DNA of 63,518 nucleotides, counting the filler. It is 5 parts of 5 records of this genome, joined end to end, with 100 filler letters (N's around TTAATTAATTAA, not from the genome) between each part and the next. Parts side by side here need not be neighbours in the genome. Positions count along the whole stretch, not along the records: positions 43,210 to 54,699 come from SRR31156797_30044; 4 more parts are not named here. One strand, written 5' to 3'. This document shows, piece by piece, positions 32,337-54,699 of the stretch. Each line of letters begins with the position of its first letter. Within the stretch, counting starts at the first letter, position 1. Position numbers and translations under genes: made by a program. The notes below the pieces were generated by a model that did no database searches, was not told where the DNA came from, and saw only the letters and a list, made by a program, of their open reading frames with translations.

Positions 32337-32338
32337 AG

Positions 32339-37362: not shown

Positions 37363-37413
37363 GTCTTCTCCTTTTTATTGGTCCGTGGACCGGCAGGGAT
37401 CAGGTTCCGCCGA

Positions 37414-38196: not shown

Positions 38197-38200
38197 GGGC

Positions 38201-39814
38201 TTAGCCTTTCGCTGTTCGGAAACGCGGAGCCTGGCGATCCGGCGGCACCAGTTTCATCGGCGCCGGATCGAACAGGCGGGCGTCCATTTCCTTCAAATCG
38301 GGGCTGACCGACAGTGTCGCCGGGGCCTGGCCCAGGACGTCGCGTTTCAGATCGACCCCCGGCGCGATTTCGGTCACCACTAGGCCGTCCTGCGTCAGCT
38401 TGATGACGCAGCGTTCGGTCACGTAGGTGATGTCCTGGCCCTGAAGTTTTCCCCGGTTGCCACTGAAGGTGACGTGCTCGACCTCCTCGACGAACTTCGG
38501 GAATTTGCCTTCGTTGGCGATGACCAATTTGCCGCCATCGATCTCCAGCTTCAGCCCGGCGGCGGTGAAATAGCCGCTGAAGACCAGCTTTCGGCCGCGT
38601 GACGTGATGTCGATGAAACCGCCGACGCCGGCCGTCACATGCGGTTTGGCCGACAGCCGCGAGACGTTGACGTTGCCGGCCGTGTCGACCTCCAGGAACG
38701 ACAGCAGGCCGCAATCCTCGCCGCCGCTTTGGAAATAGGTGAACTGGGTCGGCGACGGGATGATCGCCTGGGCGTTGGCGGCGCAACCGAAGGCGAAACC
38801 GTCCAGCGGCACGCCGCCGACGGCGCCCTGTTCGATCACCCAGGTCACCGCTTCCGGCTGGCCTTCCTCGATCAGGATCTGCGGCACCAGGGCGGATATC
38901 CCGAAGCCCAGATTGACCGCATCGCCCATCATCAACTCCATGGCGGCGCGGCGCGCGATCACCTTGTCGGTGGAAAAAGGCACCGGCGGGAAGCTCTCGA
39001 ACGGGCGTCGCACCTCGCCGGAGATGGCCGGGTCGTAAGGCGTTTCCGTGGTCTGCCATTGATCGGGGTCGATGACGATGAAATCGACCAGGGTCGAGGG
39101 CACATAGACCCGCTGCGGCGGGATCGAGCCGGCCGTTGTGATCCGCTTGACCTGAGCAATCACAAAGCCGCCGTTGTTGCGGGCCGCCAATGCGACATCG
39201 AGCACGCCCAGATAGCCGCCCTCGTGCTCCATCGAAATGTTGCCGTTTTCGTCCGCCGTGGTGCCGCGGATGATGGCGACGTCGGGCGGGATGTTCGGCA
39301 GATAAAGCCATTCATCGCCGGCAAATTGCTGCAAATGCACAATGTCTTCTTGGGCGGCCGCGTTCATCTTGGCGCCGTGGCGGCGCGGATCGACGAAGGT
39401 ATCGAGCCCGACCTGGGTCAGCACGCCGGCGCGTTTACCCGCGGCGTTGCGGACCATGTCGAACATGATGCCGCTGGGCAGGTTGTAGGCGGCGACCTCG
39501 TCGTTGCCGATCATCTGCCAGATTTTCGGCGACGGGCGCGATGACGGTCCGCTCGGATACGAGCCTGCGATGACCCGGCTGATCAGGCCCGGCTTGGCGA
39601 CACGGTCGATGCCGTCGACCCCGTACATGTCGCCGGCGGCGATCGGCAGGAACAGGTCCAGGTTCTTGGGCCGTCCGGTTTTCTCGAATGCCTCGCCGAT
39701 GGCGCCCAGGGTGAAATCCGGGCAGCCCAGCGCGCTCGACGAACTGACCGCGACCGTGGCGCCGTCGGGAATAAGATCCACGACCTCGGCGATGGGCAGG
39801 ATTTTCGATGACAT
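38201..39814 (-). CDS. Family I fused acyl-CoA:acetate/3-ketoacid CoA transferase (YdiF-like)
   Basis: VGLDTFVDPR, RGTTADENGN, VNLGFGI, IEQG catalytic Glu, GGFIDI, YVTERCV. Confidence 0.9.
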   Translation of the reverse strand: MSSKILPIAEVVDLIPDGATVAVSSSSALGCPDFTLGAIGEAFEKTGRPKNLDLFLPIAAGDMYGVDGIDRVAKPGLISRVIAGSYPSGPSSRPSPKIWQMIGNDEVAAYNLPSGIMFDMVRNAAGKRAGVLTQVGLDTFVDPRRHGAKMNAAAQEDIVHLQQFAGDEWLYLPNIPPDVAIIRGTTADENGNISMEHEGGYLGVLDVALAARNNGGFVIAQVKRITTAGSIPPQRVYVPSTLVDFIVIDPDQWQTTETPYDPAISGEVRRPFESFPPVPFSTDKVIARRAAMELMMGDAVNLGFGISALVPQILIEEGQPEAVTWVIEQGAVGGVPLDGFAFGCAANAQAIIPSPTQFTYFQSGGEDCGLLSFLEVDTAGNVNVSRLSAKPHVTAGVGGFIDITSRGRKLVFSGYFTAAGLKLEIDGGKLVIANEGKFPKFVEEVEHVTFSGNRGKLQGQDITYVTERCVIKLTQDGLVVTEIAPGVDLKRDVLGQAPATLSVSPDLKEMDARLFDPAPMKLVPPDRQAPRFRTAKG

Positions 39815-40070
39815 CGTCCCTAAGCCTCCTTCTGTTTGGGAGGTTGCACAATCAATGAGCCTTCAGACCGGCACGATCGGTGCCGGGGCTCGCTCCTCCT
39901 GGAATTGGCCCATTATTATCACGCGAATCGTTCCAATCAAACGCCTTCGCGGATAGCGTAAAAAAGACCTTGTCAAACAGGCGGGTGATTGACGGGCCGG
40001 GGTTGCATCCCTACGTTCAGGACGCGTTTTCACGCAGCGGGCCAAATCAAAATCGAGGGGGAAAGTGCCC

Positions 40071-41108
40071 ATGACCAAACACCGGATGGGAATCGTCGGC
40101 CTTGGCATGGCCGTCACGCCGCACGCCAAAAGCCTGATCGACCTGGCCGACCGGGTCGAGGTGGCCGGCGCCTATAACCGTTCCGAGGCGCGCCGCACGG
40201 CTTTTTCCGAAAAATTTCCCGATTTCCCGACGATCGACGATCTCGATTCGATCATTTCGGATTCGACGATCGATTGCGTTTTGGTCTTAACGACGCCCGA
40301 CAACCACCTCGAAACGGTGAAACGCTGCGCCGCCGCCGGCAAGCATGTGCTGCTCGAAAAGCCCCTGGAAATCAGCACCGAACGGTCCGTCGAGATGATC
40401 GCCGCCTGCCGCAAGGCCGGCGTTACGCTGGGCATCGTGCTGCAGCACCGCCACCGGGCCCCGGGCGTACGCCTGCGCCAGATTCTCGATGCCGGCAAAC
40501 TCGGCCGCCTGATCGGCGCTTCAGTGTTCATTCCCTGCTGGCGTCCGCAGAAAGGCTATTACGATCAGCCGGGGCGTGGCGTCAAATCGCGCGACGGCGG
40601 CGGTGTCCTGATCACCCAGGGCATTCATACGCTGGATGTTTTCCTGTCGCTGGCGGCCCGGCCGATCGAGGTGACCGGCTTTGCCGCGACCAGCCGGATC
40701 CATGATATCGACGTCGAGGACGTGGTCGGCGCCGCCGTTACCTACGAGGACGGCGCCATCGGCGTCGTCGACGCCACGACGGTTGCCTATCCCGGGTTCC
40801 CCGAACGCATGCAGTTCTACGGCGAAAACGGCTCGGCCCTTATTTCCGGCACCGAACTTAAGGTCGCCTATCACGACGGCAGCGAAGAGGTCATCCCGGC
40901 CGATCCGGCGGTTGGCGGCACCGGTGCCGATCCGATGGATTTTCCGCACGACCACCATCGCGAAGTCCTGCGCGACTTCTTGGATGCGCTGGACGAAAGC
41001 CGCGATCCCATCGTCACCGGCGAGGAAGCCTTGAAGACGCACCGCTTTACCGACGCCATCCTGCAATCGGCGGAACAGGGACGGCCGGTCAAGGTGCGCC
41101 ACGACTAG
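40071..41108 (+). CDS. Gfo/Idh/MocA oxidoreductase
   Basis: IVGLG, GKHVLLEKP, GGGVLITQGIHTLD. Confidence 0.92.
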   Translation: MTKHRMGIVGLGMAVTPHAKSLIDLADRVEVAGAYNRSEARRTAFSEKFPDFPTIDDLDSIISDSTIDCVLVLTTPDNHLETVKRCAAAGKHVLLEKPLEISTERSVEMIAACRKAGVTLGIVLQHRHRAPGVRLRQILDAGKLGRLIGASVFIPCWRPQKGYYDQPGRGVKSRDGGGVLITQGIHTLDVFLSLAARPIEVTGFAATSRIHDIDVEDVVGAAVTYEDGAIGVVDATTVAYPGFPERMQFYGENGSALISGTELKVAYHDGSEEVIPADPAVGGTGADPMDFPHDHHREVLRDFLDALDESRDPIVTGEEALKTHRFTDAILQSAEQGRPVKVRHD

Positions 41109-41141
41109 GCGCGTCAAACGAAATTCAGGGGAGGAAAGTCC

Positions 41142-42095
41142 ATGTTGTATCGACGTCTCGGAGGCACCGATCTCGATGTCTCGGCAATTTGTTTCGGCCC
41201 CATGCGCTCAGCCACCAAGGACCCGGCCGACGACGCCAAATCGAAGGCCGGTGAAGACGCCATGCGCGCCGCCATCGATGCCGGCGTCAACTTCATCCAT
41301 TCCAGCTATGAATACCGCACCCGCTGGATGATGGAACGGGTCCTGCGCGATCATCCGAAACGCCACGACCTGCACCACGTCATCAAGGTGCCGGTGCCCG
41401 ATTTCAAGGACGAAGGCCGTTTCGACGCCGCCAAGTTCCGCCTGCGGATCGAGGAAGCATTGAAGGAATTACACGCCGAACGCATCGACGTGCTTCAATG
41501 GATGTGGCGCTCGGACCCCAACGAGGACGATCTGCGTGTCCCGATGCTGCCGGGCCTGATGGACGACCTGATGGAAAGCTTCGGGCGCCTGCGCGACGAG
41601 GGCAAGGCCGGCTATATGATGCCGTTCCCCTATACCGTCGATTGCGCCCGCGCCGCCATGGAAACCGGGAATTTCGCCGGCATGATCGCCTATTACAATC
41701 CGATCGAGATGGAAATGGCCGAGCTGTTCGACGACTTCGAACAACGCAACATGGGCTTCCTGTCGATCCGGCCGCTCTATCAGGGAATCCTCACCGACCG
41801 GCGGTCGGGACAGGCCGACCTGGCCGAGGACGACCGCTTCCGCGATCCCAAATATGCAGGCGATTTTGCGAAAAGGGCCAAGGTCGCCGAAGCCTTCGCC
41901 GCTGAAATCGGCGAGTCCATGACCGGTTTTGCGCTGCGTTTCGCGCTTGCATCGCCGGTGGTGGCCAGCCTCATTGTCGGTCTCAATTCGCCCGAGCAGG
42001 TCGAAGGTACCGTTGCCGCCATCGAGGCACCGTTGCCGTCGCCGCGCATCGTCTCGCGGGCGTTCGAACTTTGGAAAACCGGCTTCGGGGTCTAA
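41142..42095 (+). CDS. Aldo/keto reductase family
   Basis: YRRLGGTDLDVSAICFG, AIDAGVNFI, RPLYQGILT, ALRFAL..PVV...IVG. Confidence 0.85.
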   Translation: MLYRRLGGTDLDVSAICFGPMRSATKDPADDAKSKAGEDAMRAAIDAGVNFIHSSYEYRTRWMMERVLRDHPKRHDLHHVIKVPVPDFKDEGRFDAAKFRLRIEEALKELHAERIDVLQWMWRSDPNEDDLRVPMLPGLMDDLMESFGRLRDEGKAGYMMPFPYTVDCARAAMETGNFAGMIAYYNPIEMEMAELFDDFEQRNMGFLSIRPLYQGILTDRRSGQADLAEDDRFRDPKYAGDFAKRAKVAEAFAAEIGESMTGFALRFALASPVVASLIVGLNSPEQVEGTVAAIEAPLPSPRIVSRAFELWKTGFGV

Positions 42096-42158
42096 AGGAT
42101 TTCCGCCCGACAGGAACAACAGAAACCAAAAAGAACAACGGAACAAGGAGAAACAGCC

Positions 42159-43106
42159 ATGGTTGCCATCATGCTGGTGCCCGACATGCAGGACGAGGTG
42201 AAGGCCGCGCTGAAAGGCAAGTTCGAGGTCTTCGATATGACCGGGTACGACAGTCCGGCCGATATTCCCGGCCTCGATCCGGCGCAGATCCGCGGTACCG
42301 TCACCCGCGGCGAAAGCCACTTCGGCGAAGAGCTGATGAGCCAGCTTCCGAATCTCGAGATTTCGGCCAACTTCGGTGTCGGGTATGACGGCATCGATGT
42401 ACAGGCGGCAAAAAAGCGCGGCGTCATCGTCACCAATACGCCGGACGTTCTGACCGACGAAACCGCCAATACGTCGTTGATGCTGACCCTGGCCGTCACC
42501 CGGCAGTTGCCGGTGTTGCACGATCTGGTCCGTTCCGGCGGCTGGCCGAAGGTGGAAAAGGAGCGCCTGACCCACAGCATCGTTCAAAAGAAGGTCGGCG
42601 TGCTGGGATTGGGACGCATCGGCCGCGGCATCGCCGCTCGCCTGACCGCCTGCGGCGCGGTCGTGTCCTACAGCGATCCGGTGAAACAGGATGTACCCTA
42701 CGACTATTACCCGGATCCGGTTTCCCTGGCGAAAGCCTGCGATATCTTCGTCGTCGCCTGCTTGGGTGGAGCCGCGACCTATCGCATCGTCAACGCCGAG
42801 GTGCTCGAGGCGATCGGGCCGGACGGTTTCTTCGTCAACGCGGCGCGCGGTTCCATCGTCGACGAGGCGGCCCTGGTTGCGGCGCTCAAGGCCGGCAAGA
42901 TCGCGGGCGCCGGTCTCGACGTGTTCGAGAACGAGCCGCATGTGCCGGAAGACCTTTGGACCATGGAAAACGTCGTGCTGACGCCGCATTGCGGCAGCGG
43001 CACCTTCGAAACGCGGGGCCGCATGGCGGACCTCGCGGTGGCCAACCTGGAAGCCCACTTTGCCGGCAAGCCGCCGCTGACGCTGGTCCCTGAATTGGCG
43101 GAATAG
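42159..43106 (+). CDS. D-2-hydroxyacid dehydrogenase
   Basis: GVGYDGID, TNTPDVLT, GLGRIG, VNAARG, GLDVFENEP, LTPH. Confidence 0.93.
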   Translation: MVAIMLVPDMQDEVKAALKGKFEVFDMTGYDSPADIPGLDPAQIRGTVTRGESHFGEELMSQLPNLEISANFGVGYDGIDVQAAKKRGVIVTNTPDVLTDETANTSLMLTLAVTRQLPVLHDLVRSGGWPKVEKERLTHSIVQKKVGVLGLGRIGRGIAARLTACGAVVSYSDPVKQDVPYDYYPDPVSLAKACDIFVVACLGGAATYRIVNAEVLEAIGPDGFFVNAARGSIVDEAALVAALKAGKIAGAGLDVFENEPHVPEDLWTMENVVLTPHCGSGTFETRGRMADLAVANLEAHFAGKPPLTLVPELAE

Positions 43107-43109
43107 GGA

Positions 43110-43209
43110 NNNNNNNNNNNNNNNNNNNNNNNNNNNNNNNNNNNNNNNNNNNNTTAATTAATTAANNNNNNNNNNNNNNNNNNNNNNNNNNNNNNNNNNN
43201 NNNNNNNNN
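43110..43209. other. Artificial contig linker
   Basis: N-run/TTAATTAATTAA/N-run. Confidence 0.98.
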
Positions 43210-43503
43210 AGGGAAAAGATCGCCATGATCCCCAAGGAACTGGCAGCCAAGAAAAAAGACCTGCTCAACAAGTACAGCATCAACATCGATTTTAAGCCCG
43301 TGGCGGCCATGGCCCTTTCAACCCCTTGCGTGAAGGTTTCCACAAGGCTTTTGTCCGGCCGGAAACAAAAAAACCTGCCGCTGACTTATAATCCGGTGAC
43401 CAAAAACATGGATCCGGTTGTGTGCCGGTCATGCGGCATCAGCACCTATCACTTTGGATGTTCTTCGCATATGCATATCAACTGCCCGGCCTGCATGGGT
43501 TGA
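43210..43503 (+). CDS. C-terminus of a hypothetical protein with a Cys-rich tail (5' truncated)
   Basis: Frame open from contig start; CRSC...C...H..CPAC. Confidence 0.55.
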   Translation, partial: REKIAMIPKELAAKKKDLLNKYSINIDFKPVAAMALSTPCVKVSTRLLSGRKQKNLPLTYNPVTKNMDPVVCRSCGISTYHFGCSSHMHINCPACMG

Positions 43504-43520
43504 ATCCGGGGCAATAGGGG

Positions 43521-44738
43521 TCATAAGGTGTACGGTTTCAACTGCAGCAGCTTTTTGTCCTGGGTCGCCACAATATGATAAAACCGGTCCTGGGGTACGT
43601 AAATGTACGGGACGTCTTCTTCCCTGCGATAAAGAAAGTGGGCGAGGATCATCCGGTTTACGGCCCTGTGGCCCACGATAATAATGCTCTGTGAATCCCG
43701 GCTCAAATAGAGGGCTTTTTTGATCCCCATGTCCACGCGGTATTTCATGGAAACGTACCCTTCGCCGTCGGGATAAATATAATTGTATTTGTCTTTTTTC
43801 CTCGCCAGGGAAACATGGGGCATCTGGTCCCGGATCTCTTCATAGGTCATGCACTCACAGATGCCGCTGTCGATTTCATTGAAGTCTTTCAGCTGGATGA
43901 TGGTGCATTTTTCCTGCAACGCTTTGATGGGGACGGCCGTCTGTATGGTTCTCCTTTTCTCACTGGTAAAAATAACCGGTATTTTTTTTCTCTGGAAATA
44001 TGAGGCCAGGCCCCGGGCCTGGGCAATCCCGTTTTCCGTAAGACCCGAATCTCCGCCGATGCGGTTTTCCAGGTTGAAACGGGTCTCGCCGTGGCGGAGC
44101 AGGAAGAGGTTCTTGACCGTATCCGTCACCAGAAAATCCCGGATACGGTCCCAGTAGGGGATTTTATCGGTAATCTCTTCCGCCAGGATCTTGTTGTTCA
44201 GGGAATCCAATTTGACGTAATTCCGTTCCGATTCAAGGGGTGCGTACAGGATCCGGTAATATTCAATCCTTTGACGAAAGCTTTTAATGGCTTCCTCTTT
44301 TGCCAGGTGGCTGAATTCCGGCGAAGCCACCTTCCTCTGAATTCCGGCCTTGAGGATCTTTTCATCTCCATTGATACACTCGATAAAAAGAATGGGATGG
44401 TCCGTAATGTACCCGGTGATTTTTTCTCTGCGCTTCAGGCTTACGTTGGTGGCATCCAGGATGGCCACATATCCCGTTCTTCCCAGGTAGTCCGCGGCAC
44501 GGTCCATGTTGGTGATGGCGATTTTTTCCCGCAGCTCAACCCCTTGTCGGTTGTCGGGGTCGTAGAAGTCAGGCCTTGAACTCTCTACGCCGGTGAGCCG
44601 CCGCCTGAGATCGCCGTTATTGAAAATGCCGGTTTTGACGCCGTATTTGGTCAGGTTTTCCTTCAACTTGTTGGCGATGGTCGATTTTCCCCTGGCGGGG
44701 AGACCCACCATGACGATGTAGAGCTTGTTGTTATGCAC
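43521..44738 (-). CDS. Bifunctional 6-phosphofructo-2-kinase/fructose-2,6-bisphosphatase homologue
   Basis: Kinase: MVGLPARGKS, IFNNGDLRR, ILDATN, FIEC, FRQRIEYY. His-phosphatase: LRHGE..FN...RIGGDSGL, RTIQTA, NEIDSGICECMTYEEI, RKKDKYNYIYPDGEGY, GHRAV. Confidence 0.9.
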   Translation of the reverse strand: MHNNKLYIVMVGLPARGKSTIANKLKENLTKYGVKTGIFNNGDLRRRLTGVESSRPDFYDPDNRQGVELREKIAITNMDRAADYLGRTGYVAILDATNVSLKRREKITGYITDHPILFIECINGDEKILKAGIQRKVASPEFSHLAKEEAIKSFRQRIEYYRILYAPLESERNYVKLDSLNNKILAEEITDKIPYWDRIRDFLVTDTVKNLFLLRHGETRFNLENRIGGDSGLTENGIAQARGLASYFQRKKIPVIFTSEKRRTIQTAVPIKALQEKCTIIQLKDFNEIDSGICECMTYEEIRDQMPHVSLARKKDKYNYIYPDGEGYVSMKYRVDMGIKKALYLSRDSQSIIIVGHRAVNRMILAHFLYRREEDVPYIYVPQDRFYHIVATQDKKLLQLKPYTL

Positions 44739-44862
44739 GGTTCATGCACTCCGAAATGTAAGGGATTGCCCTTGATCTTTCCAAAAGAACATCTATAATA
44801 AAAACGTATACTGTAAGCAACCCCATTTGATTGATATGGTATTTCATTTAAGGAGGTAAGGC

Positions 44863-45567
44863 ATGGCACAAACATCTGTCTCGAGGCCGAGATCGGAAAT
44901 CCTGGTAAATGATTTTGTCAGGAGCGTATACAACTGGATGGGCATCGGGCTCTGCCTGACGGCGGTGGTGGCCCTATATGTTTCCGGTAACGAGGCCCTC
45001 ACCCGGCTCATCTTCGGGAATTCCCTTGTTTTCATTCTACTGATTGTGGCGGAGCTGGGTCTCGTCTTCGCCATTTCCGGCATGGTCCACAAAATGAGCG
45101 CCGGGACAGCCACATTCCTCTTTGTTCTCTATTCGGCCCTGAACGGCGTCACCCTCTCCTTCATCTTTCTAGCCTATACCCAGACATCCATCGTCAGCAC
45201 CTTTTTCGTCTGCGCGGGAACCTTTGTGGCGTGCAGTATTTACGGCTGGATTACCAAAAGGGACCTGACCTCCATGGGCGGGTTCCTCATGATGGGTCTG
45301 ATCGGAATCATCATCGCATCCCTGGTGAACATGTTTTTCAGGAGCCCCGGCATGAGCATGGTCATCAGTTACATCGGGGTCATTGTTTTCGTGGGGCTCA
45401 CCGCCTACGATACACAGAAACTCAAAAACATGGCCTTGACGCAGCCCGTGGACGCGGACGGCTCGGTGGTCAGGAAAGGTGCGATCCTGGGGGCCTTATC
45501 CCTCTATCTCGATTTCATCAACCTGTTCCTCATGCTGCTTCGAATTTTCGGTCAGGGCCGGGATTAA
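44863..45567 (+). CDS. Bax inhibitor-1/YccA family membrane protein
   Basis: VYNWM..GL, YSALNG.TLS.I, TKRDLT, LTAYDTQKLK, ALSLYLDFINLF. Confidence 0.93.
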   Translation: MAQTSVSRPRSEILVNDFVRSVYNWMGIGLCLTAVVALYVSGNEALTRLIFGNSLVFILLIVAELGLVFAISGMVHKMSAGTATFLFVLYSALNGVTLSFIFLAYTQTSIVSTFFVCAGTFVACSIYGWITKRDLTSMGGFLMMGLIGIIIASLVNMFFRSPGMSMVISYIGVIVFVGLTAYDTQKLKNMALTQPVDADGSVVRKGAILGALSLYLDFINLFLMLLRIFGQGRD

Positions 45568-45600
45568 CCTCCTGAGACTCCATCGGTTTTCCTTACATTT

Positions 45601-45646
45601 AAGAATCCCCCTGATCGAACGGCGCATCTTTCAGGGGGATTTTCTT
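45601..45646 (+). terminator. Probable terminator
   Basis: AATCCCCCTGA...TCAGGGGGATTTTCTTTT. Confidence 0.6.
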
Positions 45647-45662
45647 TTGGGGGGCAAGAAAA

Positions 45663-46610
45663 ATGACGGAACCTTCCTACATGAAGCTGTATGAAAAGGG
45701 TGACCTGCAGGCCCGGGTTCAAAAGGCCCTGACCATTCTGGAAGACTGCCGCCTCTGTCCCCGCGCTTGCGGGGTAAACCGTTTAACGGGGGAGATGGGG
45801 TACTGTAAAACCGGACGATACGCAAGGGTTGCCAGCTTTAACCCCCATTTCGGGGAAGAGGCGCCCCTGGTGGGAAGGAACGGTTCCGGGACGATCTTTC
45901 TGAGTTCCTGCAATCTACTCTGCACCTTCTGCCAGAACCACTCCATCAGTCATCTCAACGAAGGGGCTGAAACCGATCCGGACCGGATGGCGGCCATGAT
46001 GCTCCAGCTCTCCCGAAAGGGGTGCGGCAATATCAATTTCGTCACCCCAACCCATGTGGTTCCTCAAATCCTGGAAGCCCTTGTTCCGGCCATTGAAGGG
46101 GGTCTTTGCATCCCTCTGGTATATAATGCCGGGGGATACGAATCCGTTGAAACCCTGGCCCTTCTGGATGGGATTTTCGATATCTATATGCCCGATTTCA
46201 AATTCTGGGACAATACCATGGCAGAGCGGTTCTGTAATGTGCCCGATTACCGTGAAAGGGCCATTGCCGGGATTCGGGAGATGCACCGCCAGGTGGGGGA
46301 CCTGTATGTGGGAGCCGATGGCTTCGCGGTCCGCGGGCTTCTGGTAAGACATCTGGTCATGCCGAACCGGGTGGCCGGAACGGAGAAGATCCTCTTTTTT
46401 CTGGCAAATGACATATCCGTAAATACATACCTCAACCTGATGGATCAATACCGCCCCTGCGGTGCCGCCGCTTCCCAAGCCTTGGTGGACCGGATGATAA
46501 CGGCCGGGGAATTCCAGCAGGCCTTGGACTGGGCGGAAGAAGCGGGGTTAAAACGGTTGGATCAAAGGCGGCTCCCCGAAAGAATTTTCCGGATGGTGCT
46601 GGGAGAGTGA
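45663..46610 (+). CDS. Radical SAM protein, PflX-like
   Basis: CRLCPRACGVNR, HFGEE, GSGTIF, CNLLCTFCQN, DIYMPDFK, LVRHLVMP. Confidence 0.88.
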   Translation: MTEPSYMKLYEKGDLQARVQKALTILEDCRLCPRACGVNRLTGEMGYCKTGRYARVASFNPHFGEEAPLVGRNGSGTIFLSSCNLLCTFCQNHSISHLNEGAETDPDRMAAMMLQLSRKGCGNINFVTPTHVVPQILEALVPAIEGGLCIPLVYNAGGYESVETLALLDGIFDIYMPDFKFWDNTMAERFCNVPDYRERAIAGIREMHRQVGDLYVGADGFAVRGLLVRHLVMPNRVAGTEKILFFLANDISVNTYLNLMDQYRPCGAAASQALVDRMITAGEFQQALDWAEEAGLKRLDQRRLPERIFRMVLGE

Positions 46611-47266
46611 TGGGAGGGGCGAAGACATTTGTAATCGGGGACATCCATGGCCAGCTCGGGATGCTCGAAAACCTGATGGCAAAGATTCCCTGGCGGCCGG
46701 ACAGGGACGGACTGGTCTTTTTGGGGGATTATGTGGACCGGGGGCCTGATTCCAGAGGTGTTGTGGCGTATATTCTGTCTCTGACCCGCAATTATTCCCG
46801 GATCGGCTGCGTGCTGGGAAATCACGAGGGGATGCTCTTGGATTACCTGAAAGGTGTTCAAAGGGACCTCTACCTGGCCAACGGCGGGCTCTCCACCCTG
46901 AGGGAATATACACATGCCGGACGTCCCGGCCATGTATGGGACCCGCCTGAAATTCCGGAAGAACACCGGACTTTTTACGAATCCCTTCAATCTTATGAAG
47001 AGATTGAAGACTATTATCTGGTTCACGCCGGATTCAGACCGGGCATACCCGTGGCCCAACAGTCAAAGACCGATATGATGTGGATCCGGGAACCCTTTAT
47101 TTCATCAACCCATGATTTCGGGAAAAAGGTCGTTTTCGGTCATACGCCTTTTATGGAACCGCTTGTTATGAAAAACAAAATCGGCATCGACACCGGCGCC
47201 GCATTCGGCAGGCGGCTTTGTTGCGTGGAACTCCCTTCCGAACGATTCTATTTTGCGGGTGCGTGA
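46607..47266 (+). CDS. PPP/ApaH-like metallophosphoesterase
   Basis: GDIHG, GDYVDRG, GNHE, VHAG, FGHTP, IDTG. Confidence 0.92.
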   Translation: MMGGAKTFVIGDIHGQLGMLENLMAKIPWRPDRDGLVFLGDYVDRGPDSRGVVAYILSLTRNYSRIGCVLGNHEGMLLDYLKGVQRDLYLANGGLSTLREYTHAGRPGHVWDPPEIPEEHRTFYESLQSYEEIEDYYLVHAGFRPGIPVAQQSKTDMMWIREPFISSTHDFGKKVVFGHTPFMEPLVMKNKIGIDTGAAFGRRLCCVELPSERFYFAGA

Positions 47267-47351
47267 ACAATGATGAGGGGATTTTAAGAACGGATCACGG
47301 TTCACGGTTGAAAGAGCGTGAACCGCAAAGGTTTATCCAAAAACAGACAAA

Positions 47352-48386
47352 TCAAGAAACGTCCCCGCCGATAAACCGCTCAGCCAGCTCCACGTCTTCT
47401 TTGTTGCCGATATAAAGCGGTACCCGCTGGTGAAGCTCTTTCGGATCGATTTCAAGGATCGGCCCATGGCCGTCGCTGGCATATCCGCCTGCTTCTTTGG
47501 CCACCAGGGCAAGGGGGTTGGCCTCCACCATCAATCTCAGTTTTCCCGTCGGTTTCTTGGGGTCCTTCCGGTCGGCGGGATACATGAAAATCCCCCCCTT
47601 TAACAGATTTCGATGAAAATCCGCCACCAGGCTGCCCACATACCGGGAGGAATAGGGGCGGTTTGTTTCCCTGTCAATGGATTTGAAATGATCAATGAGC
47701 GCCTTGGTATTCTCGTCCCAATAGGCATAATTCCCCTCATTGACGCTATAGGTTTTTGATTTTGCAGGGATTTGAATATTCTCATGGGACAGGAGGAACT
47801 CTCCGACGCTGGGATAGAGCGTAAAGCCGTGTACGCCTGTGCCGTTTCCCGTGGTGTACACCATCATGGTGCTGGAACCGTATATGAAATAACCTGCCGC
47901 CACCTGTTCGAGCCCCGGCTGCAGCACATCATTTAAAAGGCAGTCGATATCCGTTTCATTGCTTTTCTTTTTGTAAATGCCGAAGATGGTACCGATACTC
48001 ACATTCACATCGATATTGCTGCTTCCGTCAAGGGGGTCAAACAGGATAATATAGTTCCCCTTGGGATATCGGGAAGGGATATCGATGAGATCCGCGTTCT
48101 CCTCCGAACCCATACAGCAGAGCTGGCCGATGTGCTGCATCCGTTCGATGACCACCTGATTTGAAAAAATATCCAGCTTCTGCACCTGTTCATTCTGCAC
48201 GTTTATTTTTCCGGTGGCGCCCAGAATATCCGCAAGGCCCGCCTTGTTCACTTCCCTGGAAATAACCTTTGCCGCAACGATCAATTCATTTAGAAGGGTT
48301 GTGAAAGCACCCGTGGCTTCAGGGTTTTTTCGTTGCTGACTCAAAAGATGCTGTGTAATGGTCGTGCCGACGCCTCTATTGCTCAT
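47352..48386 (-). CDS. fbp: Class I fructose-1,6-bisphosphatase
   Basis: SEE, FDPLDGSSNIDVNVSIGTIF, RYVGSLVADFHRNLLKGGIFMYP, GKLRL; AAGGAG RBS before MSNR. Confidence 0.96.
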   Translation of the reverse strand: MSNRGVGTTITQHLLSQQRKNPEATGAFTTLLNELIVAAKVISREVNKAGLADILGATGKINVQNEQVQKLDIFSNQVVIERMQHIGQLCCMGSEENADLIDIPSRYPKGNYIILFDPLDGSSNIDVNVSIGTIFGIYKKKSNETDIDCLLNDVLQPGLEQVAAGYFIYGSSTMMVYTTGNGTGVHGFTLYPSVGEFLLSHENIQIPAKSKTYSVNEGNYAYWDENTKALIDHFKSIDRETNRPYSSRYVGSLVADFHRNLLKGGIFMYPADRKDPKKPTGKLRLMVEANPLALVAKEAGGYASDGHGPILEIDPKELHQRVPLYIGNKEDVELAERFIGGDVS

Positions 48387-48494
48387 TTTTCCATCTCCTT
48401 TCCGGTATAAATTGATGTTCAATATTTTAGAAACGGATCGAGGGATCCATTCATCGTCCTCTTTCGGGTGTAAGGTTGTTGTCGACCCATCAGC

Positions 48495-49574
48495 CTATAC
48501 GGCCTTGTTGCGATATTCAAGTCTGTAAATCTCCGCCAGGGTCAAGAACACCGTGATGATCAGGGGGCCGTAGACAATGCCCAGAATCCCGAAAACTTTG
48601 ATGCCCCCGATAATGCCGATGAATACCAGGAGTGCATTCATCTGCATCCCCTGTCCGATCAGCCGGGGCTTAACCAGGTACTCTATGACGGAGCTGTAGG
48701 AAAGATTGTAAATCAGATATCCCAGTCCGAGCCCGCTTTTCCCATTTAAAAAAAGAATGATGGTGGTGGGAATAAAAACGGCCGAAGCCCCGATAATGGG
48801 CAGAAACGCCATGAAGCAGATGACCGTTCCCCAAAGGAAAGGTGAATCCAGCCCGAAGAAGTAAAACCCCAGTCCACCCAGGATCCCCTGAACAATCCCG
48901 GAAAGGCCGTTTCCCACCACAATGGCCCGACCCATTTCATGAAATTTATGGGCCAGCTTTTCCAGGTGATCCTCCGGTACGGGGAGGAGTTGGAAAAAAT
49001 ACTGCTTCAATCTGGCACCGTCCTTGAAAAGATAGTACATGGTGAGCGCCATCAGGAAAAACTGAATCAGGAAATTGAGTAGATTTGAAGCGATGGATCT
49101 GACCTGGTCGTACAGGAATAAACCGACGTTTTTCCCGATGGAAGAGGCCAGATCCTCTATGGTATCCGACGTAATTTCAAGCCCGGTCATGTCATTTAAT
49201 CTTTTTATGCGCTTGCTCCAGACAGGGTCATCTTTGACGAACTGTTTTATCTTACTCAAGGACACCCGATCGCTGCTCTTGCTGTATAATTCGTAAGCCT
49301 CGTTGGAGAGGGTGCCGATGAACCAGCTCATGGGGATAATCAAGGTGATCATGATGAAAACGGTAACACAAAGGGACGCCAATATCTCCCGATTTCTGAA
49401 AAGTGCCTTAACCCTTGCATACAAGGGATAGAAAACGCTGACAATGAGCATGGCCAGAATGATAGCCGATAAAAAGGCCCAGAAAAGCTTAAGGATCAAC
49501 AGCAGCGAGCAGGAGAGGAATATGAGAAAGAACCTCGCACCCTGCTGTTTATCCATACCCGTGGGATCTACCAT
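48495..49574 (-). CDS. AI-2E family transporter (PerM/YdiK-like)
   Basis: Polytopic; YYLFKDG, QGILGG.GF, LVKPRLIG, GGIKVFGILGIVYGP. Confidence 0.88.
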   Translation of the reverse strand: MVDPTGMDKQQGARFFLIFLSCSLLLILKLFWAFLSAIILAMLIVSVFYPLYARVKALFRNREILASLCVTVFIMITLIIPMSWFIGTLSNEAYELYSKSSDRVSLSKIKQFVKDDPVWSKRIKRLNDMTGLEITSDTIEDLASSIGKNVGLFLYDQVRSIASNLLNFLIQFFLMALTMYYLFKDGARLKQYFFQLLPVPEDHLEKLAHKFHEMGRAIVVGNGLSGIVQGILGGLGFYFFGLDSPFLWGTVICFMAFLPIIGASAVFIPTTIILFLNGKSGLGLGYLIYNLSYSSVIEYLVKPRLIGQGMQMNALLVFIGIIGGIKVFGILGIVYGPLIITVFLTLAEIYRLEYRNKAV

Positions 49575-49608
49575 TGATAATTACCGCTCACCTTGAGGAG
49601 AGATTGTT

Positions 49609-50418
49609 TTATGATTTAATCCTGATTTTTTTCCTCATTTTTTCCGTATCCAGATTGAATAACGCATCCAGCAATGCGGGGTGAAATGAACCCGGGCCCT
49701 TGGATTGGGATGCCGCTTCTTCACCCGCCAGGCCGAAGGCGGCCAGGGCCGTGGCCGTGGCCTCAAGGCTATTCCCATCCACGGCCAGAAACGCGCCGAT
49801 GAGGGCGGTGGCGGTACAGCCGGTTCCCGTGACATTCCCCATCTGTTCGTGTCCGTTAAAGACCCTGAGAAGGTGTTGCCCGTCGGTGACCAGATCAACG
49901 GGGCCGGTTATGGCAAGGGTGGTGCCCAATTTTTGGGACAGGGCCACGGCAGCCCCTTCGGCTTCGTCCACCCCATGTACCGCATCAACGCCTTTTGTTT
50001 GGGAATCTTCCCCCGCCAGGGAAAGCACTTCAGAGGCATTTCCGCGAATCACGCTGATGGAAAGCGCGTCGGTGAGTTTCATGGCCGTGGTGGTCCGAAA
50101 TGCGGTTGCCCCGGCACCCACCGGATCCAGAACAATGGGGGTTCCCAGGGCGTTGGCCTTTTTCCCGGCCATGAGCATGACGTCCACCCAAGGGGGCGTC
50201 AGGGTGCCGATATTGAGCACCAGGGCGCCGGCAAAGGAGACCATCTCTTCCACTTCTTCCGGTGCATGGGCCATCACCGGGGAAGCGCCGAAGGCCAAAA
50301 GGGCATTTGCCGTGAAATTCATCACCACAAAGTTGGTAATATTATGGATCAAAGGTTTTTGAGTCCTGAGTGCTGTAAGGTTTAAAGCCGCTTTTTGCGC
50401 TAGTTTTTCGTCAAACAT
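49609..50418 (-). CDS. thiM: Hydroxyethylthiazole kinase
   Basis: PLIHNITNFV, GASPVMA, LNIGTL, LDPVGAGA, IRGNASE, TGTGC. Confidence 0.95.
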   Translation of the reverse strand: MFDEKLAQKAALNLTALRTQKPLIHNITNFVVMNFTANALLAFGASPVMAHAPEEVEEMVSFAGALVLNIGTLTPPWVDVMLMAGKKANALGTPIVLDPVGAGATAFRTTTAMKLTDALSISVIRGNASEVLSLAGEDSQTKGVDAVHGVDEAEGAAVALSQKLGTTLAITGPVDLVTDGQHLLRVFNGHEQMGNVTGTGCTATALIGAFLAVDGNSLEATATALAAFGLAGEEAASQSKGPGSFHPALLDALFNLDTEKMRKKIRIKS

Positions 50419-51454
50419 GTTTTTCCTTTATTGTTGCAAAGTGGTCCCAACCGGCCAAGGCCACCCGTCGGGAATTGCCGTTGGTTCCCACTATTTCTAT
50501 TCCGCCCTTGTTGGCGGTGATGGTTCCGATTTGTGTAACCGGGATACGGCTTACGCCGGAAACAGCGTTACGGATACCGGCCACGTGTTCAGGGTCGCAG
50601 GTGATCATCAATTCGTAATCATCACTTTCCTTTAAGACATAATCCAGGGGATCACGACCCGATGCTTCGGCAAATTGTCGGAGGGCCTGACTGACGGGCA
50701 GGCTCTTCTCATTAAGGACGGCTCCGACGCCGCTTTCGTCACAGATATGACCGAGGTCACCCAAAAGACCGTCACTGGTATCGATCATGGCACCGGCGAG
50801 GCCCGTTAAAGCCACGGCATGTCCTTCAACGGCGCGATGGGTCGGGCGCTGGTAAGCTTCCACCAGGGGGCTCTCCATCAGACTCTTGCCGGGTTCGGTC
50901 AGCAGTAGCGTTGCAAGTCCCGCTGCCGCCTGGCCGGGATATCCGGTCACCAGAATCACGTCTCCCGGTTTTGCGGTGGAACGGCGCACCATTTTGCCCG
51001 TTTCAACCTCTCCGATCAGGGTGATGTCGATAAAATTGGTATCAATGGATTTTGTCACATTACCACCGATGACAAAAGCCTGGAAAGGATTTAATTCCCT
51101 CAGAAATCCGCGATAAATGGCGATCACGTCTTTAAGCAGTGTATCGGAACGAAGCCCCAGGGAAATAAGGGCGTAGCACGGTTTTCCGCCCATGGCGCCC
51201 ACATCGCTGATGTTCAGGGTCATGGCCCGTCGTCCTATGTCATGGGCGGAGATAAATAGCGGCAGGTAATGCCGGTTTTCCACCATGGCGTCACAGGTTA
51301 CCAGCAGGTCATATCCCGGGCGGGGTTGAAAGGCGGCGCAGTCGTCACCTATGCCTAAGGTGTTTTTCGGGAGTTCAACACCTTCATCCCGAATAATCTC
51401 ATGAATCCGTTCAATGAGACCGAATTCTCCAACCTGGGCCAGTGTTCGGATCAT
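50411..51454 (-). CDS. thiL: Thiamine-monophosphate kinase
   Basis: GEFGLI, GIGDDCA, NISDVGAMGG, IDTSDGL, DDYEL, GWDHF. Confidence 0.93.
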   Translation of the reverse strand: MIRTLAQVGEFGLIERIHEIIRDEGVELPKNTLGIGDDCAAFQPRPGYDLLVTCDAMVENRHYLPLFISAHDIGRRAMTLNISDVGAMGGKPCYALISLGLRSDTLLKDVIAIYRGFLRELNPFQAFVIGGNVTKSIDTNFIDITLIGEVETGKMVRRSTAKPGDVILVTGYPGQAAAGLATLLLTEPGKSLMESPLVEAYQRPTHRAVEGHAVALTGLAGAMIDTSDGLLGDLGHICDESGVGAVLNEKSLPVSQALRQFAEASGRDPLDYVLKESDDYELMITCDPEHVAGIRNAVSGVSRIPVTQIGTITANKGGIEIVGTNGNSRRVALAGWDHFATIKEKHV

Positions 51455-51755
51455 GTTAGGTTCTCACTTCAGGTAAAGCATTATCGTAACCGGCATTACA
51501 GGGTTGCCGGGCGACTTTTTCCGGATACTTTCGGTAACAATGGAGAAGCGTAAGGCAAGAGATTATTTCAATGGCGTGGAGGATGTCAAGCATTGGTGGC
51601 GGCCGGGGATGTTTTTACGTCCGGAATGTCTGAATCTCTTTTCGGCAAAGTGCCCGGTTTTGCGGAACGGACTGTTGGTTTTATAGGAATTGGAGGTCGC
51701 TGAAAAAAAATACTTGACATCGAAAAACTAAAGATGATAAGCCATTACGAAATAT

Positions 51756-51859
51756 GTTAGATATGTAAAACTTAATGGCTGCGGCGAAGAAAAACAGGTA
51801 GTGCTTTTTACCGGGACAGGACTCATTTTTTGCCGCAAAAGTTAGGTAGATAAAACTTA
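51756..51859 (+). promoter_or_regulatory. Two near-identical 19-bp operator-like sites downstream of a TTGACA
   Basis: GTTAGATATGTAAAACTTA (51756-51774) and GTTAGGTAGATAAAACTTA (51841-51859); TTGACA at 51714. Confidence 0.55.
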
Positions 51860-51877
51860 GATAGGGAAAGGAAGCCG

Positions 51878-52168
51878 ATGACATCGAAAGAACCAGCCTC
51901 TCTGAAAGCCATTGACCGAAGCATGCAGGAGTTGCATGCGGTCATTGATTCTCACCGCAGTCTAATGGTGTCCATTTTTAGGCAAGAGAAAACCGGTATG
52001 CCGAACGAAAATCCCCCCTGTTCCCCGCGATCCGGGGAGGCGGCGCTCAAAGACGTCATTCGGGAGGCCATAGATGTCTTGGAGGAAAGCCGGAAGGCGT
52101 TTAAATCCAAAAAGCTTGAGGCTTTGCGTAAGAAGCTTACCAATGCCTTGATTGATACGAATTCATAA
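51878..52168 (+). CDS. Small hypothetical protein
   Basis: AAGGA RBS; ends 2 nt before next ORF; helical AIDVLEESRKAFKSKKLEALRKKL. Confidence 0.7.
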   Translation: MTSKEPASLKAIDRSMQELHAVIDSHRSLMVSIFRQEKTGMPNENPPCSPRSGEAALKDVIREAIDVLEESRKAFKSKKLEALRKKLTNALIDTNS

Positions 52169-52170
52169 GG

Positions 52171-53457: not shown

Positions 53458-53568
53458 AGTATCCCGGAGTCTGGGGTGGGGGATATTTATTTCGTGTCTT
53501 GCAGCCATGGCCTCCCTCTTTCTGTTCGGTTCAATGCTTTAACGATTAAGTGAAAGGAGTAAACGATT

Positions 53569-54354: not shown

Positions 54355-54699
54355 AAAATTCGGAATCAGGAGGGACTAGAGATGAAGAGATATTCAGGGC
54401 AGGCCCCGTTCTCATGCTTTTGGTCGGCCAAAAGAAGGGCGGAATTCAGATCAAGAGGTTTTGGAATGATCAATATGGGTTCCAGGGTGAAAACCGAAAA
54501 CCCTGTTAGCAGTGAAATCGATCGAATTATTTTTGAAAGATTGATCCGTGATGAAAGCAAAGATTCCTGAAGAAAACTTTCACAACGCTTTGATTGATCA
54601 GATTAGACGTCTTGATGATATAAAAGCCGTCTCCCCGGAGGGATTCATATGAGCCGTAATTTTCAAGTACAATGCAAAAAAAGCAACGGGAACCTGCAT

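Follow-up and report, generated by a model that had tools for sequence, protein, structure and literature searches.

Fructose-2,6-bisphosphate (Fru-2,6-P2) is usually taught as a signal found only in eukaryotes. The locus described here raises the question of whether a bacterium may make and use it as well. In the window (the whole stretch of DNA analysed, 63,518 nucleotides with filler, five contig pieces joined), a gene resembling the eukaryotic bifunctional 6-phosphofructo-2-kinase/fructose-2,6-bisphosphatase (PFK-2/FBPase-2, or PFKFB) lies near a gene for class I fructose-1,6-bisphosphatase (fbp). The host is a bacterium of the sediment sulfate-reducer type, and it carries an intact, stripped-down copy of PFK-2/FBPase-2. 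An earlier note on this DNA had read the proximity of the two genes as a candidate circuit in which Fru-2,6-P2 controls gluconeogenesis. The first gene and its domains are the following.

43521..44738, minus strand: PFKFB homologue, core-only PFK-2/FBPase-2 (405-aa ORF, Pfam domains, structure alignment)
44160..44735, minus strand: 6-phosphofructo-2-kinase domain, residues 2-193 (Pfam PF01591 and alignment with 3bif)
43551..44108, minus strand: fructose-2,6-bisphosphatase (His_Phos_1) domain, residues 211-396 (Pfam PF00300 and structure alignment)

The ORF begins with GTG, at a position where relatives have ATG. The HMM search proposed for 6PF2K and His_Phos_1 matched both domains far above their gathering scores. 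PF01591 covers residues 2-193 (E 7.7e-41; 140 bits for a cut-off of 27), and PF00300 covers residues 211-396 (E 7.7e-35; 121 bits for a cut-off of 21.7). The kinase is N-terminal and the phosphatase C-terminal in a single chain, which is the eukaryotic order; thus the description of a 405-aa protein with both PFKFB domains holds, and all the motifs that had been listed (GLPARGKS, LDATN, RHG, NEIDSG, R..DKY, and GH) are present in the translation. Among solved structures, PFKFB1-4 from human and rat come closest, with E values of 5.6e-67 to 8.9e-62, and one continuous alignment with PFKFB structures spans residues about 2-388 (~380 residues).

The animal enzymes (1k6m, 1bif/2bif/3bif, 2axn, 5hr5, 5htk) show the same domain pair and order, are 34-38% identical to the window protein over about 380 residues, and share with it the Walker A motif, the site for Fru-6-P, the RHG/Glu/His triad, and the residues binding the C-6 phosphate. 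Unlike them, the window protein has no N- or C-terminal regulatory extension: its residues align with the structures from position 2-5 onward, and about 20 residues follow the core. Representatives of the bacterial clade are 404-410 aa long, and the eukaryote-like ones are mostly longer, up to 1093 aa. Animal PFKFB proteins are controlled through phosphorylation by PKA, AMPK, and Akt. As the extensions are missing, control of this type cannot apply to the window protein.

To characterize conservation, 32 positions were mapped via the 3bif alignment in 167 homologues of the Desulfobacterota clade, with residue roles that we assume from the literature on the rat testis and liver enzymes. All mapped kinase and bisphosphatase residues but two are near-invariant. 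The kinase catalytic set is present in the window protein as Walker A K18/S19, Walker B D95, and K136 (the Lys172 equivalent). In the clade, K18, R45, R46, R70, D95, R104, K136, R157, and Y161 are retained in 167/167 homologues, R103 and S19 in 166/167 each, and T97 in 155/167. The Fru-6-P site of the rat testis enzyme (Arg79, Arg102, Thr130, Arg136, Arg193, Tyr197) corresponds to R46, R70, T97, R103, R157, and Y161. On the phosphatase side, R215, H216, N222, R263, E288, R313, K317, Y328, and R362 occur in all 167 homologues, and H357 in 166. We take H216, E288, and H357 to be the triad His256/Glu325/His390, R215 and R263 to be Arg255 and Arg305, and R313, K317, and Y328 to be the C-6 phosphate binders Arg350, Lys354, and Tyr365; R263 is presumably also the position occupied by Ser in the low-phosphatase isoform PFKFB3. 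The two exceptions, both clade-specific, are I321, replacing Arg, and R358, replacing Gln. At residue 321 (rat testis Arg358), the clade has I98, V46, A8, and T6, so that at least 158 of the 167 homologues lack Arg, and at residue 358 (rat testis Gln391) the counts are R146/Q21. The loss of Arg at the former together with the prevalence of Arg at the latter means that the kinetics or specificity of the clade enzyme may differ from those of animal PFKFB.

Taken together, these data support the assignment of the window protein as a full two-domain PFK-2/FBPase-2 with apparently intact catalytic and substrate-binding residues. That the gene encodes a working bifunctional enzyme, comprised of the catalytic core only and free of the animal regulatory tails, seems to us an evenly balanced proposition. 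The N-terminal P-loop domain would convert fructose-6-phosphate and ATP to Fru-2,6-P2, and the C-terminal histidine-phosphatase domain would revert it through a phospho-His216 intermediate. As both activities would reside in a core-only enzyme, the level of Fru-2,6-P2 would be set by metabolite levels and not by protein phosphorylation. The compound would act at the node of fructose-6-P and fructose-1,6-P2, most likely by competitive inhibition of class I FBPase, with a possible further effect on a phosphofructokinase (PFK) or on pyruvate kinase. A futile cycle would thereby be prevented when the cell changes from gluconeogenesis or the storage of polyglucose to the glycolytic consumption of reserves, or back. 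We infer both activities, the occurrence of the metabolite in these cells, and its target. Storage of polyglucose and use of the EMP pathway are described for sulfate reducers in a passage of PMC4287179.

Alternatively, the protein could be a PFKFB-fold kinase/phosphatase pair acting on another sugar phosphate, or one of broad specificity, with no Fru-2,6-P2 signal in these bacteria. The protein passes no NCBIfam model, the top one being alpha-ribazole phosphatase (88 bits against a cut-off of 163), and for many members the sources give no more than the label "broad specificity phosphatase PhoE/predicted kinase" or the label "histidine phosphatase family protein". The clade-wide changes at the substrate-site residues 321 and 358 point the same way, as do the long stem branch in the trees described below and the outcome of our literature search, in which no assayed bacterial PFK-2/FBPase-2 and no measured activity were found. 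However, a switch to another substrate would probably have eroded the residues binding Fru-6-P and the C-6 phosphate, while all six of the former, along with R313, K317, and Y328, are present in 155-167 of the 167 homologues. The Arg lost at 321 is the counterpart of a residue linked to substrate inhibition and not to catalysis. Moreover, the recurring neighbours fbp, pfk, and manA all make or use Fru-6-P. We consider this alternative rather unlikely.

Bacterial homologues of PFKFB were known before. A review by Michels and Rigden from 2006 is said to mention one in Desulfovibrio desulfuricans. The same homologue was noted by Rider et al. (2004), as cited in a passage of PMC9721465, and NCBI already names some members accordingly, in agreement with the remark in the earlier note that the gene alone is not unprecedented. 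The Desulfovibrio-type members (L056, L251-L259; 45-47% identity) and the window protein fall into one clade, with support 100. Their loci have tyrS, GGDEF, and ilvB as neighbours and no fbp within 8 kb; by contrast, the Desulfatiglandales branch, to which the window protein belongs, has PFKFB as a near-core gene placed in a block with fbp.

The gene is widespread within one order, whereas its distribution across the phylum is patchy. It was found in 119 of 201 genomes of Desulfatiglandales, with intact reading frames, and in 51 of the 401 genomes of the phylum sample. In two unrooted trees, the Desulfobacterota clade is monophyletic with support 100 and lies outside a cluster containing all seven named eukaryotes, with a long stem branch of 0.85 and 1.39 substitutions per site, respectively. 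A marine-metagenome clade (P0135, P0200, P0206, P0208, P0216) takes an intermediate position between eukaryotes and the Desulfobacterota clade, and a Myxococcota pair (P0178, P0221) is weakly nested among eukaryotes. Proteins of both groups are also core-only, about 400 aa long, and have the same residues conserved (7/7 or 6/7 at most mapped sites), but they keep Arg or Lys at position 321, unlike the Desulfobacterota clade. Besides this separate deep branch, it is the I/V/A/T at the Arg358 equivalent and the frequent Arg at Gln391 that set the Desulfobacterota clade apart from animal PFKFB. One member of the marine-metagenome clade is filed as WP_286964763.1 under Methylobacterium sp.

The trees thus make the term "eukaryote-style", applied to this gene earlier, misleading as to origin. 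They are also relevant to the idea that the gene was recently acquired from a eukaryote, or that it is a contaminant of assembly or binning or a decaying relic without function. The literature on the family is overwhelmingly eukaryotic, and the window is joined from contigs of a metagenome bin, one piece having a foreign G+C content. Nevertheless, neither tree places a eukaryotic sequence as sister to the clade, the gene shares its contig piece with typical bacterial genes, and its locus is syntenic with 23 other bacterial loci, some of them from assemblies whose contigs measure 1.2 to 8.2 Mb. This synteny, the spread of the gene in the order, the intact frames, and the near-invariant catalytic residues contradict such explanations, and we regard them as very improbable. 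On the other hand, the position of the Desulfobacterota and marine prokaryote clades outside the eukaryote cluster is compatible with a fused PFK-2/FBPase-2 that arose in bacteria, or was exchanged with them, before the radiation of extant eukaryotes. Fru-2,6-P2 signalling could then be native to a bacterial lineage that is both large and old, and gate the futile cycle of FBPase and PFK while polyglucose is stored and used, in much of Desulfatiglandales, in Syntrophales-type and Desulfomonilia-type genomes, and in some Desulfovibrio-type ones. We put this forward as a tentative scenario with a modest chance of being correct; if true, a textbook "eukaryote-only" regulator has a prokaryotic history.

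We then considered the relation of the gene to fbp, which is on the same real contig piece (43210-54699). The relevant features are listed below.

44739..44862, no strand: divergent intergenic region of 124 nt between PFKFB and the BaxI gene (alignment with relatives)
44863..45567, plus strand: membrane protein of the Bax1-I/YccA family, whose gene opens the opposite-strand array (PF01027, E 1.5e-64)
45663..46610, plus strand: radical SAM protein (Pfam match weak and under the cut-off)
46607..47266, plus strand: PPP/ApaH/PrpA-type metallophosphoesterase (scores under all NCBIfam cut-offs)
47352..48386, minus strand: class I fructose-1,6-bisphosphatase (fbp), 344 aa from ATG (NCBIfam, Pfam, structure match)
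48495..51454, minus strand: AI-2E family transporter, ThiM, and ThiL (block shared with fbp and PFKFB in relatives)

The fbp ORF extends to a TTG at 48422 (47352-48422, minus strand). Its product matches the NCBIfam model NF006778, class 1 fructose-bisphosphatase, with 480 bits (cut-off 368) and has both FBPase domains, PF00316 and PF18913. From the start of PFKFB at 44738 to the stop of fbp at 47352 the gap is 2613 nt, and both genes are on the minus strand, which bears out the class I fbp noted about 2.6 kb away. The PPP-type phosphatase said to lie between them is the plus-strand metallophosphoesterase; its gene has a 4-nt overlap with the end of the radical SAM gene and converges on fbp. 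The radical SAM gene is absent from the equivalent position in several close relatives.

PFKFB and fbp do not form an operon. As three plus-strand genes lie between them, the two minus-strand genes are not co-transcribed; fbp ends the same-strand array thiL-thiM-AI-2E-fbp, and PFKFB has a separate conserved divergent promoter region. The core of this region is conserved in 9/9 aligned relatives, and it carries a sigma-70-like site TTGATC-16-TATAAT for the plus-strand operon and a GGAG ribosome-binding site preceding the PFKFB start. The promoter scan yielded 7 sites against 5.1 expected and by itself is no evidence. A comparison of the regions upstream of PFKFB and fbp revealed no common word of 8 bases or more.

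Linkage to fbp depends on the distance of the relatives. It is present in 23 of 27 informative close loci (>=61% identity) and missing in the other four, while none of the 16 informative loci of more distant homologues (60% identity or less) have it. Among genomes evenly drawn from the phylum, fbp is within 8 kb of the PFKFB gene in 6 of 51 carriers. The expected conservation of linkage is hence seen in close relatives and fails beyond them, and the larger conserved block is thiL-thiM-AI-2E-fbp / PPP-(rSAM)-BaxI / PFKFB. The proximity of fbp is a lineage-specific inherited gene order in one bacterial order, Desulfatiglandales, and gives the circuit weak support.

Class I FBPase is encoded in 50 of 51 genomes with PFKFB and in 166 of 350 without it (Fisher p 6e-14, uncorrected for relatedness). 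The respective figures for PF00365 PFK are 51/51 and 305/350, with 2-4 PFK matches in each of five relatives. All these co-occurrence figures are confounded by shared ancestry.

The nearest solved relative of the window FBPase is the E. coli enzyme (2gq1, E 4.7e-98); 2qvr, listed with it, is presumably the E. coli FBPase complex with Fru-2,6-P2. At the cavity positions 45, 46, and 186 (pig numbering), the window FBPase has Ser, Arg, and Leu, and that of E. coli has His, Arg, and Tyr, so that two of the three are in the mammalian state. The use of the central cavity, positions 45 and 186, as a criterion for synergy with Fru-2,6-P2 reportedly comes from Gao, Shen and Honzatko (2014). The mammalian-type state is general in FBPases of the phylum, and the two positions do not differ with the presence of PFKFB (45 FBPases from genomes with the gene, 95 from those without): position 45 is S, A, or G in 43/45 versus 78/95, and position 186 is Leu in 40/45 versus 81/95. 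For the circuit proposed from fbp proximity, this leaves in favour the linkage in close loci and the co-occurrence with FBPase; against it are the lack of an operon, the absence of linkage in distant loci, and cavity residues that do not track the gene.

The same observations could mean that the enzyme makes and breaks Fru-2,6-P2 while its target is mainly a PFK (ATP- or PPi-type) or pyruvate kinase, or that it buffers Fru-6-P, the adjacency of fbp being inherited order in Desulfatiglandales. The linkage is limited to this one order, the block includes the unrelated thiL, thiM, AI-2E, and BaxI genes, and the FBPase cavity residues are indifferent to PFKFB. Some other neighbourhoods look more operon-like than that of fbp: an ATP-PFK gene lies 160 nt upstream of PFKFB on the same strand in one locus (L229), and a pyruvate kinase gene is immediately upstream on the same strand in two (L063 and L054, the latter with GAPDH also nearby). 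Pyruvate kinase of kinetoplastids is activated by Fru-2,6-P2. To our knowledge, however, bacterial PFKs of the single-domain type do not have the duplicated half from which the Fru-2,6-P2 site of the eukaryotic enzyme is formed, which counts against a PFK target. Activation of plant PPi-PFK by Fru-2,6-P2 is described in a passage of PMC12965863. Still, the co-occurrence with class I FBPase is far tighter than that with PFK, and competitive binding of Fru-2,6-P2 is to be expected at the active site of every class I FBPase, as the compound is described in a passage of PMC5639204 as a competitive active-site inhibitor of these enzymes. A target other than FBPase appears to us rather unlikely, and inhibition of class I FBPase stays the preferred reading.

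Against the circuit, most neighbourhoods in the phylum sample have no link to sugar metabolism and include tyrS, GGDEF, ilvB, mazG, aroB, amino-acid ABC transport genes, or a response-regulator-TPR/omptin-like set. In its favour, the gene has repeatedly come to lie next to differing enzymes that act at one metabolic node. In addition to the fbp, pfk, and pyruvate kinase loci above, the PFKFB gene adjoins manA in two loci (L228 and L231), PPDK in one (L238), and the glycogen phosphorylase gene glgP in another (L047).

The PFKFB gene, a homologue of PFK-2/FBPase-2, and the domains of its product are as follows:

43521-44738, minus strand: PFKFB open reading frame, GTG start, 405 aa
Residues 2-193 of the product: 6-phosphofructo-2-kinase (Pfam PF01591, E 7.7e-41)
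Residues 211-396 of the product: histidine phosphatase branch 1 (Pfam PF00300, E 7.7e-35)

This kinase-then-phosphatase order is that of the eukaryotic PFKFB enzymes. Among all solved structures, the 12 that match best are PFKFB1-4 of human, rat, and bovine origin (E 5.6e-67 to 8.9e-62), each forming a single continuous alignment over residues ∼2-388, and this match settles the fold. The Pfam and structure alignments thus bear out the earlier description of a 405-aa protein with two PFKFB domains in the eukaryotic order, and the motifs quoted in the earlier note (GLPARGKS and LDATN in the kinase; RHG, NEIDSG, R..DKY, and GH in the phosphatase) are all present in the translation of 43521-44738. 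The N- and C-terminal extensions are absent, so the regulation has to be unlike the phosphorylation control seen in the animal isoforms.

To relate the residues of the window protein to the rat testis numbering, we used the alignment with 3bif, whose chain index gives the His256, Glu325, and His390 of the literature; the roles of the residues are those described in structural and mutagenesis studies. Counts were made in 167 homologues from the Desulfobacterota clade (118 proteins with a length of 390 aa or more and 49 full-length matches from 51 loci, two sets that may overlap), with 7 other short prokaryote-like proteins and 102 eukaryote-like representatives for comparison. On the kinase side, K18, R45, R46, R70, D95, R104, K136, R157, and Y161 are found in all 167 members, and S19 (166/167), R103 (166/167), and T97 (155/167) are slightly below that. 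On the phosphatase side, R215, H216, N222, R263, E288, R313, K317, Y328, and R362 are invariant, and H357 is kept in 166 of the 167. The conserved catalytic sites predict that both the kinase and the phosphatase activities are live, and the window enzyme would probably both make and destroy Fru-2,6-P2. Two positions of the bisphosphatase site have changed. Residue 321 (window 43776-43778), equivalent to Arg358, is Ile in 98, Val in 46, Ala in 8, and Thr in 6 clade members, unlike in the marine-metagenome clade described below and in eukaryotes, which keep the Arg; residue 358 (window 43665-43667), equivalent to Gln391, has become Arg in 146 of the 167, the remaining 21 having Gln. The paired changes may represent a relocation of charge, and may remove substrate inhibition, a property linked to Arg358.

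A word-index search yielded 2214 relatives of the window protein. The best 120 of these are bacterial, from records of Desulfatiglandales, NaphS2, Desulfobacteraceae, and Desulfococcus, and some of them are named 6-phosphofructo-2-kinase/fructose-2,6-bisphosphatase by NCBI. The gene is present in 119 of 201 genomes from the order to which the closest complete relative belongs, with most misses in small assemblies, and in 51 of 401 genomes of an even sample of the phylum Desulfobacterota; none of 14 well-known control genomes passed the 6PF2K cut-off. In a library clustered at 50% identity, the Desulfobacterota clade is reduced to four full-length representatives, while other full-length matches are at most 40% identical and mostly longer.

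Two trees, one by FastTree with 121 rows and one by IQ-TREE (LG+C20, short search) with 71 rows, agree in topology. The Desulfobacterota clade forms one side of a branch with support 100 and has a long stem (0.85 and 1.39 in the two trees). Next to it, in both trees, are the protein P0137 and a marine-metagenome clade of ∼400-aa proteins, and beyond the latter lies a large cluster (support 99 in FastTree, SH-aLRT 92) containing all seven source-named eukaryote rows, that is, Capsaspora, Dermamoeba, Pygsuia, Nutomonas, Syssomonas, Andalucia, and duck, with a Myxococcota pair (P0178 and P0221) weakly nested among them. As the trees are unrooted, 10 or 11 rows are of odd composition, and most rows are nameless, the conclusion is limited to recent events: the gene was not acquired recently from any of the eukaryote lineages sampled. 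Given the long stem of the clade and the odd composition, placement by outgroups such as other histidine phosphatases and P-loop kinases would be unreliable. Overall, this is a genuine PFK-2/FBPase-2, intact and core-only, and it belongs to a deep bacterial clade.

Core-only PFKFB-like proteins are also seen in at least two further prokaryotic groups, the marine-metagenome clade (proteins P0135, P0200, P0206, P0208, and P0216, listed with P0142 and P0137, on contigs of up to 75 kb, with one member of the group filed under Methylobacterium sp.) and the Myxococcota clade, which sits among eukaryotes. P0124, which belongs to the Desulfobacterota clade, comes from a record of a Nanobdellota archaeon MAG. 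One genome of the phylum sample (locus L260, genome and contig G298:C51) has only a distant match, at 34-36% identity, inside a 779-aa open frame; this could represent either an extended form resembling the eukaryotic proteins in a bacterial assembly or contamination.

The window consists of five contig pieces divided by four joints, each made of 44 N, 12 letters, and 44 N, and the gene order across the joints means nothing. One piece, 43210-54699, holds PFKFB as well as fbp, and their linkage is therefore real. The joints and the genes next to PFKFB are:

15565-15664, 33441-33540, 43110-43209, 54700-54799: artificial spacers
44863-45567, plus strand: Bax1-I/YccA-like membrane protein
45663-46610, plus strand: radical SAM protein
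46607-47266, plus strand: PPP/ApaH/PrpA-like metallophosphoesterase, with a 4-nt overlap with the radical SAM stop
47352-48422, minus strand: fbp open reading frame (344 aa from the ATG at 48386 chosen in the earlier note)

The window FBPase scores 480 bits with the NCBIfam class 1 fructose-bisphosphatase equivalog, passing the cut-off of 368, and its nearest solved structure is the E. coli FBPase (E 4.7e-98). Hence a class I fbp does lie ∼2.6 kb from PFKFB on the same strand, as had been proposed, the exact gap being 2613 nt, with a PPP-type phosphatase gene indeed in between at 46607-47266 (plus strand). PFKFB is divergent from, and fbp convergent with, the array of three plus-strand genes. 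As these three genes lie between them, PFKFB and fbp share no transcript unless one runs antisense through all three; fbp is the final gene of a same-strand run of thiL, thiM, an AI-2E transporter gene, and fbp.

All nine aligned relatives share a conserved core of the 124-nt intergenic region between PFKFB and the Bax1-I-like gene; within it are sigma-70-like hexamers for the plus-strand array and, ahead of the PFKFB start, a GGAG. This start is ATG in seven of eight aligned relatives, compared with GTG in the window. The scan for promoters and terminators in 43000-48700 was not above chance (7 vs. 5.1 and 7 vs. 7.7 in shuffles, respectively), and we used the promoter scan only to name hexamers whose conservation comes from the alignment. 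A cis element common to the PFKFB and fbp upstream regions was rejected, as the two have no common word of 8 or more bases (shuffles average 0.5). The nucleotide similarity of the relatives ends directly after the PFKFB stop. A 92-aa Cys-rich ORF with CxxC pairs (43225-43503, plus strand), convergent with PFKFB, lies at the very start of its contig piece; it has no match in Pfam or NCBIfam and no tblastn match in 63 related loci.

These 63 loci come from species-representative genomes, and 43 of them are informative about linkage, having at least 5.6 kb on the fbp side (20 are not). The linkage to fbp reported in the earlier note holds for close relatives: fbp is found 1.6-5.8 kb away, in the same arrangement, in 23 of the 27 informative loci at 61% identity or more, the other four being L010, L015, L026, and L059. 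It does not extend further, with 0 of 16 informative loci at 60% identity or less and, in the even phylum sample, fbp within 8 kb in only 6 of the 51 carriers, all six among the 12 loci of at least 61% identity. Moreover, thiL, thiM, the AI-2E gene, fbp, the PPP gene, and the Bax1-I-like gene move together as one block in the relatives, and two loci (L213 and L219) keep the Bax1-I-like and radical SAM genes without fbp. The simplest reading is that the adjacency to fbp is a gene order inherited within Desulfatiglandales, and it is weak evidence for a regulatory circuit. That the neighbouring FBPase would be the main target of Fru-2,6-P2 seems to us somewhat doubtful. Five of the closest relatives (L001-L004 and L007) lack the radical SAM gene, and the gap between PFKFB and fbp is correspondingly shorter there, at ∼1.6-1.7 kb.

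Gao, Shen & Honzatko reportedly found in 2014 that Leu186, with a small residue at position 45 (pig numbering), marks FBPases that have a central cavity and AMP/Fru-2,6-P2 synergy; the E. coli enzyme has His and Tyr at positions 45 and 186. The window FBPase has Ser55, Arg56, and Leu202 at pig positions 45, 46, and 186. Using 140 of the 150 listed FBPase N-domains of the phylum sample (loci L070-L209), we found a small residue at position 45 in 43 of 45 domains from carriers vs. 78 of 95 from non-carriers, and Leu186 in 40 of 45 vs. 81 of 95. Carriers and non-carriers being alike, we rejected the idea that this signature marks co-evolution with PFKFB; it is a trait of the phylum, and no partner of PFKFB. 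Class I FBPases of the phylum have Ser, Ala, or Gly at position 45 in 121 of 140 and Leu at 186 in 121 of 140, a state that eukaryotic enzymes showing AMP/Fru-2,6-P2 synergy typically have, unlike the His and Tyr of E. coli.

The presence of the two classical target enzymes can be compared over the same sample. A class I FBPase family match (E ≤ 1e-20) is found in 50 of 51 carriers vs. 166 of 350 non-carriers (Fisher p 6e-14), or in 45 of 51 vs. 104 of 350 if only strong matches are counted; PFK (PF00365) is found in 51 of 51 vs. 305 of 350. All of these figures ignore shared ancestry. The genomes of relatives have 2-4 PFK-family genes, one being a PRK06830-type ATP-PFK above the cut-off, and together with the FBPase genes this means that both directions of the node exist. 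For D. gigas, polyglucose storage and EMP genes are reported (PMC4287179).

Outside Desulfatiglandales, most neighbourhoods of the gene have no connection with sugars; the FBPase/PFK metabolic node is represented in several independent ones. In locus L229, an ATP-PFK gene (6690-7847) lies 160 nt upstream of PFKFB (∼8001-9212) on the same strand, and in L063 and L054 a pyruvate kinase gene (8263-9687 and 7951-9375, respectively) is directly upstream on the same strand, with PFKFB at 9989-11218 and, in L054, GAPDH nearby. These arrangements look more operon-like than that of fbp in the window. Further neighbours from the same node are manA in L228 and L231, PPDK in L238, and glycogen phosphorylase in L047. 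We see an even chance that Fru-2,6-P2 from the window enzyme acts on the FBPase/PFK node. Among homologues at 56-63% identity, genes for response-regulator-TPR and omptin-like proteins follow PFKFB in convergent orientation (L218, L224-L226, L035, L040-L043, L047, and L062), and several of these loci also carry genes for a ∼450-aa unannotated protein and a PAS histidine kinase.

Fru-2,6-P2 is taught as a eukaryotic invention, and, to our knowledge, reviews mention a single bacterial exception, treated as a curiosity. The PFKFB enzyme is a near-core, strongly constrained gene across an order of abundant sediment bacteria, and almost all carriers also have PFK and class I FBPase. Should these bacteria really make the metabolite, they would have an unrecognised small-molecule switch at the central node of glycolysis and gluconeogenesis, and the question of where the eukaryotic regulator came from would become answerable; otherwise, a conserved PFKFB fold would serve another substrate. 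Strain NaphS2 carries the gene (locus L005), and strains of Desulfatiglans, Syntrophus, and Desulfovibrio are in culture. As cultured carriers exist, the claim is testable by standard enzyme assays and LC-MS. PFK-2/FBPase-2 as a kind of enzyme is already known, and the Desulfovibrio precedent named in the earlier note is right, the D. desulfuricans homologue being noted by Rider et al. (2004), as cited in PMC9721465. A 2025 glycolysis review, in the text we could consult, discusses PFK-2/FBPase-2 for mammals and plants alone. Our literature search, which covers subscription papers thinly and so does not prove absence, found no assay of a bacterial PFK-2/FBPase-2, no measurement of Fru-2,6-P2 in Desulfobacterota beyond the statement on the Desulfovibrio precedent, and no account of the fbp block.

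The piece 33541-43109, which ends just below the PFKFB gene, has a G+C content of ∼62%, compared with 40-53% elsewhere in the window. A genomic island beside PFKFB was rejected, as this stretch is a contig piece of its own. Its genes code for an SDR, a CoA-transferase, a GFO/IDH/MocA oxidoreductase, an aldo-keto reductase, and a D-2-hydroxyacid dehydrogenase, and the contig may come from a different organism in the bin. Type VI secretion genes are found at 25156-33400, encoding TssM/IcmF, TssA/VasJ-ImpA, VasI, and a sigma-54 activator, together with a ClpV-like AAA protein that is truncated where its contig piece ends and of which the C-terminal half remains.
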